From: a virus
Length of the DNA: 37,305 bases
UHGV virus genome: UHGV-0050993
Strand: one strand, 5' to 3'
This document shows positions 17,563-36,658 of this stretch, one piece after another. A program made the position numbers and the translations under genes. Positions within the stretch are counted from its first letter, which is position 1, and the number at the start of each line of letters is the position of its first letter. A model generated the notes under the pieces. It was not told the origin of the DNA. It saw only the letters and a list, made by a program, of their open reading frames with translations, and made no database searches.

Positions 17563-18978
17563 TCAACCTACACCACAAGGAATTGAGTAACTGGAATAGT
17601 CGGGTTGCGCAGCCGACTCCGGGCAATGCATACACATCATCAACGCATCAGCCAGGTTAGGAGATGGAATACCGAGCTTCTGCTTCATTTCGACCTTAGT
17701 CATAAGCTCCAGCTTCCCGTTGTTATTGAATTTGCGCTGAATCTGCGTCAGTTCTGCAAACAGCTTCTCCAGCATCTTCTCGCCTATCGCTTCTTTGTCG
17801 AAACTCAGCATGTCGTCGGGGTCTGCATACTCACCGTGGACAACCGCCCGATATGTCAGATACAGCCTGTCAGCCAGCGCGTAATAGAATTGCGCTCGCT
17901 TATTGCGGAACACATCGCCAATAGTGCGAACGTTGTCGCCCTGCACGACTTCATCAGCCCATGCCCCAGCCTGATAAGGCGCATCTTCATCGAATGGCGA
18001 TTCGCTGCCCTTGAACATCGTGGCGGTGATTTTCTTACCGGAGAACGCTTCCGTTGTCTGTCTGCGTAGCCCCGCACCGACGCCATCACCATCCCACAGG
18101 TAATGGTCAGCGCCGTCTTCAATCGCCAGCGAAGTTGCCCAGTCAGCACCTTCATTGATGTCCATCAGCAGGCCTTCGGCAATGCGCTTAACTACCGAAC
18201 CGTGGCGCGATGCATAACCTTTAGCATCCGGTCCTGTATCTGACGGGTCATGCGCAGAGACAACAGCGCCTTTCGCCTTCCATCCGAGTTTCTTGTGCGC
18301 ATCGGTTGCGGCTTCAAGCCATTCACGTTTGATGATTGCCATATCACTTGCGCTTACTGGCTCACCAAGCCAGATGTGACGATACAATGTCGGATTTCTG
18401 CGTTTGCACTCTTCCATCTCCAGACGGAGAACTTCAGGAAAGTGCGGGTTGTCGGTGTAGTTCACCGTCAGCAGGCAAATATCATCGGGAGGATTTACAA
18501 CGAATCGCTGATAGGTATCGTCGAGGATGTTTTTCGGGTTGAAGCTCACCCATATTTCGGAAAATGGCTTGCGGATGGTTGGTATCAGGATATCCCATGA
18601 TTCCTTCGTTACCGCTTCCGCTTCCTCCACCCAGCAGATATCAATGCCTTCGAGCGATTTAATCTTCGTCGGGTTGTTTTTGATGCCGTAGAACATGAAC
18701 TCAGCATTCGTTCCGAGATGACGAATCATTGAACGCTGAATTTCAAACTCAGCCGAATACCCTTCCCGCTCTATGGTGTCTTCAAGCAACCGGATTACCG
18801 AATCGCTGATACTGTTTTGCAGCTCACGAGCGCAAAGTATGCGCACAGGCTGCCGACGCGCCGCTTCAACAAGCAGCCTCGCAATTGCCCATGACTTACC
18901 GCTACCTCGACCGCCTTTGGCAACTTTGTAGCGATGCGCCTCAATGAACGGTTCAAAGATAGGATTAATCGAGGTCAT
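17563..18978 (-). CDS. Terminase large subunit
   Basis: 471 aa; Walker A-like KGGRGSGKS near N-terminus; resembles Sf6/P22-like TerL. Confidence 0.9.
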   Translation of the reverse strand: MTSINPIFEPFIEAHRYKVAKGGRGSGKSWAIARLLVEAARRQPVRILCARELQNSISDSVIRLLEDTIEREGYSAEFEIQRSMIRHLGTNAEFMFYGIKNNPTKIKSLEGIDICWVEEAEAVTKESWDILIPTIRKPFSEIWVSFNPKNILDDTYQRFVVNPPDDICLLTVNYTDNPHFPEVLRLEMEECKRRNPTLYRHIWLGEPVSASDMAIIKREWLEAATDAHKKLGWKAKGAVVSAHDPSDTGPDAKGYASRHGSVVKRIAEGLLMDINEGADWATSLAIEDGADHYLWDGDGVGAGLRRQTTEAFSGKKITATMFKGSESPFDEDAPYQAGAWADEVVQGDNVRTIGDVFRNKRAQFYYALADRLYLTYRAVVHGEYADPDDMLSFDKEAIGEKMLEKLFAELTQIQRKFNNNGKLELMTKVEMKQKLGIPSPNLADALMMCMHCPESAAQPDYSSYSIPCGVG

Positions 18979-19415
18979 TTTCCGAATAGAGTGCTCATCG
19001 GTGATGTTTCAATCTGAATTGCGCCGCCGTCTTTGCCTGTTAGCTCGTGATCAACCTTGTCGCGCCATTTATCCTTCTGTCGGTTCTTAAGCCAGAAGAT
19101 GGCGGCGGTTGTATCAGGCGGGTAATACTTCTCAAGCGGAGTTTCGACAATTCTGTTTTCAATAACACGAATATCGATGTCTGGAGCCACAAAGCCCATA
19201 GCGCGTTGATAAAGACGGTCACTAACTTCTGCATCAGCGACGGCCTTACCCTTTTTTATGGACTCCGAAAACTTAGGATAATCAAGCTTCCACTTGTTAA
19301 TAGTTGACTCACTGACTTCAAAGAAATCAGCAAGTTCTGCATCGGTGTAGCCCAGCAAGCACAGTTTGCGTGCCTGTTCGGCATACGCCTCTTGATACTT
19401 TGTTGGGCGCGCCAT
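18975..19415 (-). CDS. Terminase small subunit (Sf6-like)
   Basis: 146 aa; C-terminus ...GKDGGAIQIETSPMSTLFGK as in Sf6 gp1-type small terminase; 4-bp overlap with TerL. Confidence 0.8.
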   Translation of the reverse strand: MARPTKYQEAYAEQARKLCLLGYTDAELADFFEVSESTINKWKLDYPKFSESIKKGKAVADAEVSDRLYQRAMGFVAPDIDIRVIENRIVETPLEKYYPPDTTAAIFWLKNRQKDKWRDKVDHELTGKDGGAIQIETSPMSTLFGK

Positions 19416-19417
19416 GT

Positions 19418-19660
19418 TTATGCTCCGGTAGTGAACAGGTCTAACGCTTCCTTCGATTTACGCACCGCTTCGATAGTTCGAGTCGTGATATCTGAATTAG
19501 CGCCACCTGACTGGAAGTGAATTTTGAATAGCTCAAGCTTCAGCTCGTCAGTGCCAATGAACTGAAATGCTTCTTCTGCGGCTGCGTTCTGGTTCATGAC
19601 CAGCTTGTAAATCTCTAACTGGAATTTCTGTTCTTCAGTCATGGGAATAATCTCTGCCAT
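19418..19660 (-). CDS. Hypothetical protein upstream of small terminase
   Basis: 80-aa ORF tightly packed against TerS start. Confidence 0.55.
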   Translation of the reverse strand: MAEIIPMTEEQKFQLEIYKLVMNQNAAAEEAFQFIGTDELKLELFKIHFQSGGANSDITTRTIEAVRKSKEALDLFTTGA

Positions 19661-19907
19661 TGTTGGCTCCGTTTATCCGTTAAAAGGGATATCAGTTAAG
19701 TTATCCCGTGTAGGGTATAAGCCATTGTCGAGACCACTCATTGAATGGTCTCTGCAATAACCGATGTCTTTCCATCAGTCCGCCACCACAAAGAATCTTT
19801 TTTGCCATAAGGCTGGAGGTTCATCTTTCACTGGCTGCCAGTGTTATTTCCCCACTTACTGGCTTGGGTTGTTTCGCTGTACTGCCGTTAATTAGTGAGT
19901 CCGGGGA

Positions 19908-20393
19908 TTATTTCAGTTCGTTACCAGGCATTTCTTTTAGCTCTTTCAAATGACAACGATTGAGGCTAAACCACTCCCCGTGCGACCTATAGTTGTAATA
20001 TTTTTGGTGCAATTTGGTTTCAAGCTCTCTATCGGCCGGAATCTTTGCAATTAGATTTAGCTTCCCACCACTCATGCGAGATATCTCTGAAATTCGTTTA
20101 TTAACCCTGCGACTAAACCCTATTTTTGTTAGCCCACTATCTTCAGCATGCAGAACGTACACATATGATTTTTGCGAAGCACTGGGTGCGACTTTGTTGT
20201 AATTAATCATGTCAAACATAAAGCCTTGCTTTAGCAAAGTTTCAAAAAAGATAGAATTAACACACCCATTCCTTCTCAGCTCTGCACTTAGCTTGTCAAT
20301 TTCCTCTATGATGTCGCCAGACCCCTTTCCACTTATAAGAAAATCTTGGTACATGCGACCAATTCTTGAGGTAATTTCAACAAAGTTATTCAT
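19908..20393 (-). CDS. T5orf172/GIY-YIG-like domain protein (moron)
   Basis: 161 aa; C-terminal motif YVYVLH...GLTKIGFS...LHQKYYNYRSHGEWF resembles T5orf172 (GIY-YIG superfamily); gene is visibly AT-rich relative to flanking late genes and flanked by non-coding DNA. Confidence 0.6.
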   Translation of the reverse strand: MNNFVEITSRIGRMYQDFLISGKGSGDIIEEIDKLSAELRRNGCVNSIFFETLLKQGFMFDMINYNKVAPSASQKSYVYVLHAEDSGLTKIGFSRRVNKRISEISRMSGGKLNLIAKIPADRELETKLHQKYYNYRSHGEWFSLNRCHLKELKEMPGNELK

Positions 20394-20537
20394 AGCGTTT
20401 ACCTTTTAGAAAGATGAGCCTGTTCGCACAGAAAAGCCGTCCCCGAGATGGTCGCCACCATATACGGCAATTCTCAGGCTCAGCTTTCTGAAAGACTCGG
20501 GATTGTTACGCGCTGCGATGCGCGGTTTACTGCAGAT

Positions 20538-20563
20538 GTAAAAAAGCCCCGCAAATGCGAGGC
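20538..20563 (-). terminator. Rho-independent terminator downstream of Rz
   Basis: On - strand: CCTCGCA-TTTG-CGGGG hairpin followed by CTTTTTTAC. Confidence 0.5.
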
Positions 20564-20737
20564 TAAATCCTGGTATTTGTAATGACTGGCTCTTATCTCA
20601 ACGCAGCCCCTTACTGCGCGCCAGATGCTCAATATCAAGCATCAGCAATGAGATGTTTAATCTGGATTCACTCCAGAAGTGATCATCACCCTGTCTACAG
20701 AGCCAGATGTGAAGGATGATGAGTAAAATTATCGCTA

Positions 20738-21205
20738 TCATCGAAGGCATTGCGTCCTGATGTATTCCTGAAGCGTTCTCAGTGCTGTTTGGTCGCGGAT
20801 AATTCCGTCCCGGACACCGAGAACGTTTCGTCCAGCAACTGGAGAGAGTTCGACGGTGGCATCATTGCCCATGCCGGAGGCGCCGGAGGTTTCGGCTGAG
20901 GATGGCACAGGGCATTTTCCTTTGACGAGCATCCTGCCACCATTATCAAGCTTGCGCCGAAGAGCATCATTTTCAGCTTTCGCATCAGCTAACTCCTTCG
21001 TGTATTTAGCATCGAGTGCATCAGCAGCACGCTGGCGTTGCTGCATGTCAGTAATGGTGGCGGTCGCCTGCTTCAGCTCACTGACTTTTTTATCTCGCTG
21101 TTCTTTGTAGGCGATGGCGTTATCACGGTAGTGATTAACAGCCCATGACAGGCAAACGATGATGCAGATAACCAGAGCGGAGATAATCGCGGTTACTCTG
21201 CTCAT
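20738..21205 (-). CDS. Rz: i-spanin Rz
   Basis: [31 protein letters not shown]... matches lambda Rz N-terminus; ORF track start 21217, MSRVT start at 21205 preferred. Confidence 0.9.
20779..20985 (-). CDS. Rz1: o-spanin Rz1 (embedded in Rz, +1 frame)
   Basis: Embedded ORF with lipobox (LIMVAGC) and proline-rich stretch [11 protein letters not shown], as in lambda Rz1. Confidence 0.8.
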
Positions 21206-21705
21206 TGCTGCCCCCACAAACAGACTTCACGCTCAATCTCACGGCGAGTCATCAGCCCTTTCCATTGCTTACCGCCAGCGTATGTCCAGCGACGTAGCTG
21301 GTCACATGCGCCATTGATATCGCCCTGGTTGATTTTGCGAAGAAGCGTCGATGTTCTGAAATTGCCTGCGCCCACGTTATAGACGAACGAATAAAGAGCG
21401 CCGCGCGTTGTTTCCGGTATATCGACTTTGATGTACGGGTTAATTTGTCTGGCGACCGTGGCAAGGTCTTTATTCAGGAGGGCTTTGCATTCTGCTTCGG
21501 TATACGTTTTACCGAGCACGATGTCTTTTCCGGTATGTCCGTGACATACAGTCCATACACCAACAATATCTTTGTATGGTATGTAGCTGACACCTTCCAG
21601 ACCATCGTTACCACTTGGCCCAGTGATTAACACAGATGCTATAGCAATAGCCCCGCCACTTATCGCCGCTATTACGCTATTTCGTAGTGCCGGTGACATT
21701 GCCAT
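21202..21705 (-). CDS. SAR endolysin (phage 21 R-type lysozyme)
   Basis: N-terminal SAR domain ([16 protein letters not shown]) followed by lysozyme catalytic region; resembles R21. Confidence 0.85.
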
Positions 21706-22691: not shown

Positions 22692-23315
22692 CTAACGTGT
22701 GACCGCGTTCAAAATGTTGTCTGCGATTGACTCTTCCTTGTGGCATTGAACCACCAGAGCGTCATACAGCGGCTTAACAGTGCGTGACCAGGTGGGTTGA
22801 GTAAGATTTGGGATTAGCATCGTTACAGCGCGATATGCGGCGCTTGCTGGCATTCTTGAATAGCCGACACCTTTGCATCTTCCGCATTCTTTCTCAACAA
22901 CTCTCCCCCACTGCTCTGTTTTTGCTATATCAACCGCACGGCCTGTACCGTGGCAATCTCTGCATCTTGCACCCGGCGTCGCGGCACTACGGCAATAATC
23001 CGCATAAGCGAATGTTGCGAGCACTTGCAGTACCTTTGCCTTAGTATTTCCTTCAAGCTTTGCCACACCACGGTATTTCCCCGATACCTTGTGTGCAAAT
23101 TGCATCAGATAGTTGATAGCCTTTTGTTTGTCGTTCTGGCTGAGTTCGTGCTTACCACAGAATGCAGCCATTCCGAATCCGGCTTGTGATTGCGCCATCC
23201 CCATAGCAGCCATCACATCAGTACCGGAAAGAGAGTCAGAAGCCGTGGCCCGTGGTGAGTCGCTCATCATCGGGCTTTTTGGCGAATGAAATTTAGCTAC
23301 GCTTTCGAGTCTCAT
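22692..23315 (-). CDS. Q: Late antiterminator Q (lambda type)
   Basis: 207 aa, [44 protein letters not shown]... essentially identical to lambda Q. Confidence 0.95.
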
Positions 23316-29802: not shown

Positions 29803-30144
29803 ATGACACAATTTCAACTTGCATTAATCGCTAGAGAAGTTGATGGAGAAGTCATCCATCTTCGCACCAAAGACGGATACATCAATGCCACCGCGATGTG
29901 CAAGTCTGCGGGGAAGCTACTTGCTGACTATACACGACTAAAAACAACACAAGATTTTTTTGATGAATTATCACGCGATATGGGGATTCCCATATCGGAG
30001 TTAATTCAATCATTTAAAGGCGGAAGAGCAGAGAATCAAGGGACTTGGGTTCATCCAGACATCGCAATTAATTTAGCTCAGTGGCTATCTCCAAAATTTG
30101 CAGTGCAAGTATCGAGATGGGTGCGTGAGTGGATGTCAGGTTAA
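29803..30144 (+). CDS. KilA-N domain protein (N-terminal fragment of a longer disrupted gene?)
   Basis: 113 aa with KilA-N hallmarks (INATAMCKSAGK...GTWVHPDIAINLAQWLSPKFAVQVSRW); its TAA stop is in frame with the following ORF. Confidence 0.7.
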   Translation: MTQFQLALIAREVDGEVIHLRTKDGYINATAMCKSAGKLLADYTRLKTTQDFFDELSRDMGIPISELIQSFKGGRAENQGTWVHPDIAINLAQWLSPKFAVQVSRWVREWMSG

Positions 30145-35636: not shown

Positions 35637-36319
35637 AAATTACCAAACAGAAAGCTCAAGCAGTTGCCGATTTGAAAGTTGGCTACACCCTCGGTCACGC
35701 TGATGTGGCAATGCTGAATGAGCTGGCGCGTATCGCGCTGGCATCGCTCGAATTAGAGCACGGCATGATTCGGCGTTTCGATCTTGATATGAGCAATTGC
35801 GACTCGTTCGGGCAGGATTGCGGAGCTGATATGGTTGAGGATTTAGACGGTGAATATGTGCTTTGGCATGAGGTTTTACCCTACCTATATCGGTATGACG
35901 AATACACCGCCACGACAGCGACGGTATATGTGCCAGACGCCGCTACAGCAATCCGCGCGTGCATAGATGAATTTCCAGAATCTGTGCGCGATATTGTTGA
36001 AGAATGCGCATCTATCGCAGAAAATGCCTGCCGCGCCGCCATGCTTCATGGTGCCGAACCTGTAAGCCAAACTTACAAGTTGAACGAGCTATCGGGCAAC
36101 TCTCCGGTAACTCCGGATGGTTGGATAAGCTGTAGTGAGCGAATGCCGGATACCAAAACAGCCGTTCTTGTTGCCGTGGAGTTTGACAGGAAAGGTGACT
36201 GGCGAATGAAATGGGCGACTTACATCCCGGGTCATCCTGACGCTAATGATGGGTGGATAATTCCTGGTGCGTCGTGGAAACCGTCACACTGGATGCCGCT
36301 ACCAGAGCCTCCACTTTGA
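35633..36319 (+). CDS. DUF551-domain protein
   Basis: C-terminal region DGWISCSERMPDTKTAVLVAV...GWIIPGASWKPSHWMPLPEPP resembles DUF551 common in enterobacterial prophage early regions. Confidence 0.6.
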   Translation: MKITKQKAQAVADLKVGYTLGHADVAMLNELARIALASLELEHGMIRRFDLDMSNCDSFGQDCGADMVEDLDGEYVLWHEVLPYLYRYDEYTATTATVYVPDAATAIRACIDEFPESVRDIVEECASIAENACRAAMLHGAEPVSQTYKLNELSGNSPVTPDGWISCSERMPDTKTAVLVAVEFDRKGDWRMKWATYIPGHPDANDGWIIPGASWKPSHWMPLPEPPL

Positions 36320-36415
36320 AAGCGAAGCTTATACATATCTTTTACATCAGCAATCTATTGTTAATCTCCAATCAATGTTACGTTGTCATCTCACTCATGC
36401 TTTGGAGGTAGTGAT

Positions 36416-36595
36416 ATGTCTTGTCCAAAATGCGGTTCTGGAAATATTGCAAAAGAAAAAACAATGCGTGGATGGTCTGGTGATTATGTGTGCTGCGATT
36501 GCGGATACAACGACTCTAAAGACGCATTTGGAGAGCGTGGTAAAAACGAGTTTGTCAAAATTAATAAAGATCGCGAAGGCAACGGAAAAAGCTAA
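36416..36595 (+). CDS. Small zinc-ribbon protein
   Basis: CPKCGSG...CCDCG four-Cys motif; GGAGG RBS 8 nt upstream of ATG 36416. Confidence 0.55.
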   Translation: MSCPKCGSGNIAKEKTMRGWSGDYVCCDCGYNDSKDAFGERGKNEFVKINKDREGNGKS

Positions 36596-36658
36596 TTTAT
36601 TTATTCATATATGAAAACAATGTAACCAATATTCGAATTGAAGAACTGAAAGAACACC

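Follow-up and report, generated by a model that had tools for sequence, protein, structure and literature searches.

In ICP1, T5-like and Aeromonas phages, T5orf172 genes have been described as homing endonuclease genes that are enriched near terminase genes (35% of neighbourhoods) and that carry, in 87% of cases, one or more Zn-finger DNA-binding domains of the CapR, DUF723 or DUF4397 type (Barth et al. 2023, PMC10448857). ICP1 also encodes Odn (Gp88), an origin-directed anti-satellite T5orf172 nuclease of proven activity, in which the catalytic Glu E180 is required for cleavage and the substitution E180A abolishes activity (PMC8263062). With respect to expression, terminators and hairpins that sequester the ribosome-binding site (RBS) are documented control elements of I-TevI and segB of T4 and of the HNH gene mobE of Aeh1 (PMC2988022). 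The gene considered here lies in UHGV-0050993, a viral genome of 37,305 nucleotides (the window, by which we mean this whole stretch) that represents a P22-like prophage; this prophage encodes an integrase (50-1243), Q (22692-23315), a tailspike and a P22-type Ant, and has its lysis and head genes on the minus strand. The gene encodes a protein of 161 amino acids (aa) in which an HkbL-like helical bundle precedes a T5orf172-class GIY-YIG nuclease domain with its catalytic positions intact, and which is predicted to be active. Within lambdoid late operons it represents one allele of the 'rha slot', where Rz is followed by a terminator, a structured leader, one of several alternative open reading frames (ORFs; Rha, KilA-N plus HkbL, or the HkbL-like–T5orf172 fusion) and, further downstream, terS.

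The gene itself is ordinary, being an annotated family member at a known variable spot of P22-like genomes. Specifically, epsilon34 gp68 and g341c gp64, named 'GIY-YIG nuclease family protein' in RefSeq, are the same gene, with 100% identity over the N-terminal 75 aa. The block 19418-20773, which takes in the terminator, the spacer and also the DUF2560 gene, shares 98.5-98.7% DNA identity with the Salmonella phages epsilon34, g341c and NM-3 (98.7% for epsilon34 and g341c); for the gene itself, DNA identity to all three is 98.7%. The Rz and terminase modules of epsilon34 and g341c differ from those of the window; otherwise there is no difference of substance. What is new here is the combination of an HkbL-like with a T5orf172 domain, its place in a putatively riboregulated allelic series, and the leader RNA. 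The rha/kilA position of lambdoid phages is thereby seen as an allelic series that includes a nuclease, all behind one covariation-supported leader that masks the Shine-Dalgarno (SD) sequence.

An earlier note, made from the sequence without database searches, had assigned T5orf172/GIY-YIG-like motifs to the C-terminal half of the protein (YVYVLH, KIGFS and GEWF). These lie at aa 77-82, 90-94 and 139-142, and profile searches bear the assignment out. Residues 77-154 match both Pfam MUG113 (PF13455; E 4.2e-13, 50.1 bits against a cut-off of 22.3) and Pfam T5orf172 (PF10544; E 1.1e-9, 39.2 bits against a cut-off of 20), and the protein matches phrog_4284 over its full length (E 1.4e-75); a search of NCBIfam with the protein gave no match. 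In the AlphaFold2 (AF2) model of the protein (predicted local distance difference test score, pLDDT, 85.5), the C-terminal half adopts a beta-beta-alpha-beta-alpha-beta-alpha arrangement, a GIY-YIG fold, and resembles the GIY-YIG nucleases SLX1 and I-TevI; SLX1 structures are the top neighbours, a relationship evident at the level of the fold. An exhaustive profile search with the nuclease domain returned 17,251 representative proteins at E ≤ 1e-3 and 240 at E ≤ 1e-10. Across alignments of 17 and 36 sequences, reaching down to ~25% identity, Y79, K90, G92, R100, E125, H129, E140, W141 and F142 are invariant, and R100 stands eight residues beyond G92, as expected for the catalytic Arg of a GIY-YIG enzyme. 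The second Tyr of the GIY-YIG motif is replaced by Lys (K90-I-G), which is usual for T5orf172. Y79, R100 and E140 presumably correspond to Y6, R27 and E75 of I-TevI, an equivalence that we draw from motif spacing and not from residue-by-residue superposition. Odn has the same domain order (N-terminal targeting, C-terminal T5orf172) and a conserved catalytic Arg and Glu, whereas in I-TevI and the Seg proteins the order is reversed, with an N-terminal catalytic and a C-terminal DNA-binding domain. A profile alignment to Hpy188I, a GIY-YIG enzyme of ~170-180 aa, starts in the helical N-terminal part and continues into the GIY-YIG motifs, but is not significant (E 0.041). Matches from phmmer to designed PPR proteins (E 3e-6) were rejected, because eight weak repeat matches had been summed onto one helical hairpin.

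The N-terminal ~75 aa had been regarded as unrecognised. This no longer holds: they form a three-helix bundle (aa 3-21, 25-41 and 47-73; pLDDT 85 in the AF2 model) that is homologous to HkbL, so that the 'unknown' half of the nuclease is the HkbL module of the KilA-N cassette. The domain matches phrog_875 (HkbL) at E 1.4e-6, with a reciprocal match from HkbL at E 4.3e-6, and hhalign aligns the two over 68 columns with 98% probability (E 1.5e-13). BLASTP gives 33% identity to HkbL of HK620, and the motifs SR-x-GR-x-(F/Y)S and GCVN are common to both. A tblastn search of the domain against phages found identical copies alone, and a protein search with the N-terminal profile returned one fragment. 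HkbL, of 85 aa and with a basic tail, stands alone as a protein and is frequent in lambdoid prophages of enterobacteria. In HK620, hkbL (locus L002, 1595-1852) directly follows hkbK (1849-2346), which encodes KilA-N and ORF11CD3 domains, with a 4-nt overlap (ATGA) that suggests translational coupling, and the same order occurs in many other phages. The net charge of the N-terminal domain, counted from its sequence, is about zero, which suggests protein-protein contact or oligomerisation and not DNA reading. The equivalent part of Odn is a RepA_N-like DNA-binding domain copied from the target satellite, in contrast to the HkbL-like bundle here, which has no evident DNA-binding character. Elsewhere in the window no ORF11CD3, Rha or HkbL partner was detected, a KilA-N-like ORF being the only find. 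This 113-aa early-region ORF (29803-30144, plus strand), with weak KilA-N-like similarity to HkbK of HK620 (tblastn E 1e-4), is the sole candidate there for a DNA-binding relative of the slot proteins. Among database sequences, protein P0164 (123 aa) fuses an ORF11CD3 domain to HkbL, and Rha alleles possess a C-terminal ORF11CD3-like region as HkbK does, but lack HkbL.

The position of the gene was examined by pairwise comparison of the window with eight relatives, from which the points of exchange were read. Homology to HK620, CUS-3 and phiv205-1, which carry KilA-N plus HkbL or Rha in place of the nuclease, ends at 20386-20389, around the AUG at 20393, and restarts at 19888-19910, around the stop codon. 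In Kapi1, HF4s and Huey the upstream homology ends instead at 20541, just 3' of the terminator, and unrelated ORFs follow with no leader. In Sf6 the nuclease position is nearly empty; elsewhere its place is mostly taken by another gene (Rha, KilA-N). The locus is therefore polymorphic in just the comparison that the earlier note had proposed, with Rha, KilA-N plus HkbL, other ORFs or nothing in place of the nuclease, and on these alignments exchange affects either the ORF by itself or the ORF together with its 150-nt leader. The Rha and KilA-N/ORF11CD3 (HkbK) plus HkbL cassettes (P22 rha, phi80 rha, HK620 hkbK-hkbL) share the slot, the terminator and the leader, with ORFs swapped exactly at the AUG; their proteins differ from the present one in having Rha or KilA-N DNA-binding domains, no nuclease domain, and HkbL as a separate product. 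Rha, KilA-N, HkbL and T5orf172 are in this way linked in one testable unit, which offers a handle on widespread uncharacterised phage genes. A larger unit emerges from ~30 nuclease-positive prophages, in which homology to the window breaks at 20773 (the Rz 3' end), at 21136/21205, at 19761-19763 and, in most T5orf172-positive prophages, at 19418-19423 (the DUF2560/terS junction). The clustering of these breakpoints indicates that the gene travels in a ~1.35-kb block (19420-20773), including the DUF2560 gene, that has been joined to several Rz and terminase modules; of the latter, at least three different ones accompany the gene.

The ~150 nt from terminator to AUG (20394-20545, minus strand) are conserved before T5orf172, Rha and KilA-N ORFs alike. 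They contain a long hairpin of ~95 nt (20402-20495; minimum free energy, MFE, –66.4 kcal/mol, z –4.0), which pairs with the SD sequence, and a smaller predicted one (20509-20524) that has a counterpart, GCGCC..GGCGC, in divergent leaders. A covariance model of the leader, built from ten sequences, gives matches of E 1e-19 to 1e-30 before T5orf172, Rha and KilA-N genes. The leader lies upstream of every T5orf172 homologue tested that is either close or 49-61% identical, before the Rha genes of CUS-3, phiv205-1, phi80, Pantoea PA-1, Hafnia yong1 and Stx phages, and before the KilA-N genes of HK620 and an Actinobacillus phage (loci L002, L007, L008, L010, L012, L040-L050 and L091-L098). Besides the Actinobacillus phage, the hosts of the leader are lambdoid phages of Escherichia, Salmonella, Klebsiella, Enterobacter, Hafnia, Pantoea and Erwinia, and blastn places it in 149 phage records. 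The model did not find it in Sf6, HF4s, Huey or Kapi1, nor at loci with distant T5orf172 domains alone. A second, more divergent copy (74.8 bits, E 1e-13) occurs at 146-290 of L095, from the Stx phage Escherichia phage Lyz12581Vzw, before an 'antirepressor' gene inserted between the endolysin gene (R) and Rz; the leader thus travels with this class of genes and not with one genomic position.

The pairing in the long hairpin of the leader is supported by covariation. Over 19 distinct leaders, 95.3% of cells are in standard pairs compared to 81.3% in shuffles (0/500), changes on both sides occur in 14 of the 25 pairs against 8.9 expected (0/500), and controls with slid partners fall to 36-54% pairing. 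The alignment used was fitted to the model, which favours structure; in an independent MAFFT/RNAalifold run, 10 of the 25 pairs were compensated. A permissive Rfam search of 19300-21300 returned nothing below E 0.5 and no family for the leader, and the RNA appears to be undescribed so far. The suggestion that the gene is independently regulated thus stands insofar as a dedicated structured 5' leader precedes it, but this leader is common to the Rha and KilA-N alleles. No conserved site for IHF (consensus WATCAANNNNTTR, at most one mismatch) was found in ten leader and upstream regions, and the published connection of IHF with rha thus has no obvious site here to account for it. A conserved upstream ORF within the leader (MVATISG...) was considered and rejected, its ATG being missing in HK620, phiv205-1 and L010; it is the source of the annotated N-terminal extensions of P0010, CUS-3 Rha and phiv205-1 Rha. 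More generally, annotated or called starts of Rha and T5orf172 genes lie inside the leader in CUS-3, phiv205-1, phi80 and a metagenomic contig (L007 2031-2100, L008 2086-2122, L012 5001-5069, L091 1614-1652). The conserved AUG, 12-23 residues further on, is where family alignments and PHROG matches set in, and the starts inside the leader are probably mis-called.

The elements on either side of the gene belong to the backbone. The terminator-like hairpin, which had been placed at 20538-20563, is real: its stem-loop (20545-20564, minus strand) has eight pairs, six of them G-C, and is followed by UUUUUU. Relatives conserve it, and the epsilon34 and phi80 records mark it as a rho-independent terminator. 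By number, the terminator-like sites of the region do not exceed chance (three found versus 1.9 ± 1.3 expected). The downstream inverted repeat is likewise genuine, its 7-bp core (GAGACCA/TGGTCTC) lying within 17-nt arms (19724-19740 and 19742-19758). Its RNA has a folding energy of –24.2 kcal/mol (z = –6.2; 0/200 shuffles fold as well) and no U-tract. The two had been taken for marks of the cargo, but the terminator is retained in phages with other cargo or none, and the spacer 19661-19907 is 96-98% identical to that of phages with other cargo; being kept whatever the cargo, both are backbone. The ~250 bp downstream that had been called non-coding do exist as a 247-bp spacer, but hold a relic ORF of 28 codons (MNLQPYGKKDSLWWRTDGKTSVIAETIQ; 19738-19824, minus strand) with its stop codon in the hairpin loop, at the equivalent of which the epsilon34 record has a misc_feature 'similar to the N-terminus of ST64T orf118'.

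Nor does the gene have a promoter and terminator of its own, as an independently regulated moron would. A sigma-70 consensus scan of the minus strand from 19300 to 21300 found no site, although weak or non-canonical promoters could escape such a scan, and the sole intrinsic terminator is the upstream one, which belongs to the backbone. Measured against the classical definition of a moron, the gene therefore has the deviant composition and the insertion polymorphism, but neither the promoter nor the terminator. These properties bear on whether it could be a moron-type prophage gene whose nuclease, made in the lysogen, would act on incoming phages as a single-gene defence or by superinfection exclusion. 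We consider this improbable, in that no promoter-like site occurs on its strand, a late-operon place directly behind an intrinsic terminator with a masked SD sequence is the opposite of constitutive lysogenic expression, and the other alleles of the slot are lytic-cycle genes. In addition, PADLOC-DB 2.0 gave no defence-system match above the domain level, with PDC-S57 as the sole candidate (E 4e-4); this match aligns aa 74-145 with positions 4-82 of a 212-position profile, and such limited coverage points to the shared nuclease domain alone.

In composition, the gene is as AT-rich as first reported, with a G+C content of 38.9% against a window mean of 47.4% (standard deviation 3.7, 486-nt windows), a value within the bottom 1.5% for windows of that length. 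Of 5426 complete E. coli genomes, 58 carry the gene, each in a single chromosomal copy, and in 56 of the 58 identity is at least 99%. At a coverage of ≥80%, the downstream flank can be traced in 1064 of the complete E. coli genomes; from these two counts, ~5% of such slots hold the nuclease allele. In one further case, a 9.7-kb contig assigned to a 'Cellvibrionaceae bacterium' metagenome-assembled genome (MAG; JAUVQU010000080.1, locus L097) carries a 100% identical protein together with leader and flanks; mis-binning of a contig from an enterobacterial phage is the most likely explanation. The allele is at least 99% identical across E. coli and Salmonella prophages. 'Recently acquired', as the earlier note had it, is therefore apt for the present allele, but not for its association with the slot. 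Homologues of 49-61% identity sit between Rz and the small terminase gene in metagenomic lambdoid phages and an Erwinia genome, accompanied by different holins, Q proteins, terminases and portals, and the DNA similarity of the window to these loci (67-71%) starts exactly at the terminator. In both domains, comparison with the window gene gives nonsynonymous divergence (pN) of 0.26-0.38 and saturated synonymous divergence (pS) of 0.68-0.94. The same slot and leader on unrelated lambdoid backbones, at saturated synonymous sites, make the association old, and the low pN against saturated pS in both domains indicates purifying selection on the whole protein.

This distribution also bears on a housekeeping role, in which the protein would be a late DNA-processing enzyme, either an SLX1-like structure-specific nuclease that prepares concatemers for headful packaging by trimming or debranching them, or a terminase helper like the HNH protein gp74 of HK97. 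That SLX1 structure-specific nucleases are the top structural neighbours, that the gene lies just upstream of the terminase genes, and that no sequence-specific DNA-binding domain is present would all suit such an enzyme. However, a function of this kind is hard to reconcile with a gene carried by ~5% of genomes that have the flank, with phages of the same terminase type that do without it or carry Rha (CUS-3, phiv205-1), and with its occurrence alongside at least three terminase modules; in addition, the window already encodes NinG/Rap. We therefore regard a housekeeping role as very improbable.

The reading that we favour, tentatively and at somewhat less than an even chance, is that the gene may be a late-acting, tightly throttled, DNA-cutting selfish or conflict element. 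With no promoter of its own, it would probably depend entirely on read-through of the terminator behind Rz by Q-modified RNA polymerase for its transcription, and its translation would probably be held low, since the SD sequence forms the base of the conserved ~95-nt hairpin and is sequestered there. Two modes of action can be envisaged, each of them unlikely when taken singly and rated about equally. In a homing-type mode ('marker exclusion'), the nuclease would cut genomes with another allele, and the break would be repaired from its own genome via the conserved flanks; the presence/absence polymorphism at one locus with conserved flanks fits such a mode, and the sporadic occurrence described above (58 of 5426 genomes, against 1064 that are flank-positive) speaks for the selfish or conflict element as a whole. 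In an Odn-like mode, the nuclease would attack a competing element. In either case the neutral helical domain would probably give dimerisation or partner-mediated targeting and not direct sequence reading.

We favour a late-acting conflict element on the strength of a control architecture like that of T4-type homing genes, of the T5orf172 precedents, and of the harm done by misregulated rha. The terminators and RBS-sequestering hairpins of I-TevI, SegB and MobE are a close parallel, although T4 frees the RBS by means of a late promoter within the hairpin, and none is evident in the leader here. The T5orf172 homing genes are alike in catalytic domain, sporadic distribution, terminase proximity and location at exchange boundaries; they differ in being larger and in most cases equipped with Zn fingers, and the present gene, unlike them, belongs to the late operon of a temperate lambdoid phage and follows a shared leader. 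Beside odn, ICP1 has rha-like or Bro-N gene pairs that can replace one another. As for rha, the commonest allele of the slot, phage growth suffers when it is misregulated in hosts defective in IHF (PMC4936722), as would suit a slot kept for DNA-directed proteins of potential toxicity. The domain and its fold, the invariant residues at catalytic positions, the covariation-supported leader structure, ORF-precise replacement, travel in a 1.35-kb block, purifying selection, and the same slot and leader in diverged homologues are further points in favour of a selfish or conflict element.

Several observations weigh against it. No Zn-finger, helix-turn-helix or other DNA-binding domain was found in Pfam, PHROG and NCBIfam searches, whereas Zn fingers are present in 87% of T5orf172 homing endonuclease genes (PMC10448857), and the structure of the N-terminal domain resembles generic helical bundles alone; with no Zn finger and a neutral N-terminal domain, a long specific target site is hard to explain. 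Non-nuclease alleles behind the same slot and leader mean that the pattern may reflect ordinary module exchange and not homing, and long-term purifying selection at one locus is unlike the classic homing cycle of invasion and decay. With respect to co-conversion of the flanks, carriers share the 1.35-kb block with its clustered breakpoints, but the identity of their downstream flank (98.7%) is not clearly above that in non-carriers (96.6-98.0%). Finally, both the Q-dependent late expression and the translational repression by the leader are predictions from sequence. In having no recognisable dedicated DNA-binding domain, the protein departs from the definition of a free-standing homing endonuclease in that respect. 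A small T5orf172 nuclease without a Zn-finger domain is all the same a subject for studies of GIY-YIG targeting.

The allelic series itself suggests a different function, in which the protein would be an analogue of Rha and KilA-N proteins, binding DNA or serving in regulation, either like an antirepressor or by modulating DNA transactions of host or phage. Its T5orf172 domain would bind or at most nick DNA, with cleavage no part of its biological role, as in a domesticated nuclease in the manner of PLE CapR. It occupies exactly the slot and leader of Rha and KilA-N proteins, and its N-terminal domain has a homologue in HkbL, the partner of the KilA-N protein. However, CapR lost its nuclease domain and kept its DNA-binding domain, whereas here the nuclease domain is kept, and the invariance of Y79, R100 and E140 over deep divergence argues for retained chemistry. 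We consider a regulatory role unlikely. A broader model, speculative and doubtful at present, can also be put forward. Lambdoid late operons would contain a riboregulated 'conflict slot', in which a backbone terminator and an SD-masking leader control swappable, potentially toxic DNA-directed effectors that are exchanged exactly at the AUG. The HkbL fold, separate with KilA-N and fused here, would be a common adaptor or regulatory module that targets or restrains the effector by protein-protein contacts, and the nuclease would be a partner-guided GIY-YIG enzyme and not a classical homing endonuclease.

Table 1. Features of the window at and around the nuclease gene.
Feature	Position	Strand	Evidence or remark
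Rz i-spanin	20738-21217	-	Pfam Phage_lysis E 3e-29, phrog_13; upstream neighbour
Rz1, embedded in Rz	20779-20985
50-aa conserved ORF (Sf6 gp65 / epsilon34 gp67 family)	20598-20750	-	phrog_11822 E 2e-37; annotated in epsilon34, Sf6, Kapi1
Intrinsic terminator	20539-20564 (stem-loop 20545-20564 plus U-run)	-	Behind lysis genes; backbone feature
Small G+C-rich hairpin (CGCGC-loop-GCGCG)	20509-20524	-	MFE fold; between terminator and long hairpin
Long irregular leader hairpin	20402-20495	-	Basal 3' strand is the SD sequence AAAGG (20402-20406); AUG at 20393
Nuclease gene, 161 aa, two-domain	19908-20393	-	ORF, Pfam, phrog_4284
N-terminal domain, aa 1-73, three-helix bundle, HkbL (phrog_875) homologue	20175-20393	-	AF2, profile matches
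C-terminal T5orf172-class GIY-YIG catalytic domain, aa 76-155	19929-20168	-
Conserved spacer, 247 bp, not cargo	19661-19907		Contains relic ORF and hairpin 19724-19758
DUF2560 gene, hkbM family, 80 aa	19418-19660	-	Pfam DUF2560 E 1e-43
Small terminase subunit	18975-19415	-	phrog_309 E 1e-67

The placement of the gene between Rz and the small terminase gene, as first described, is correct, but omitted two neighbours, the 50-aa ORF and the DUF2560 gene (Table 1). The 50-aa ORF overlaps the Rz 3' end and stops before the terminator, and a signal peptide is predicted in the annotation of its Kapi1 homologue. Downstream, a second ORF-precise insertion point lies at 19762, beside the hairpin 19724-19758. 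It is occupied by a Gp49-family gene (381 bp) in Sf6 (gp66), Huey and the E. coli EC6 prophage (L003 548-960, L005, L009 19442-19822); that of Huey is annotated 'anti-CRISPR', and the EC6 prophage has both the nuclease gene and the Gp49-family gene. Lying just 3' of the Gp49-family gene and lacking a U-tract, the hairpin could be a stabiliser or a processing site. The stretch 19763-19898 around the relic ORF is 96-98% conserved whatever the cargo, for no obvious reason. Elsewhere in the window, two further stretches with a G+C fraction of at most 0.39, at 1151-1550 (near the integrase/tailspike junction) and 36251-36600 (near the right end), are possibly further foreign modules.

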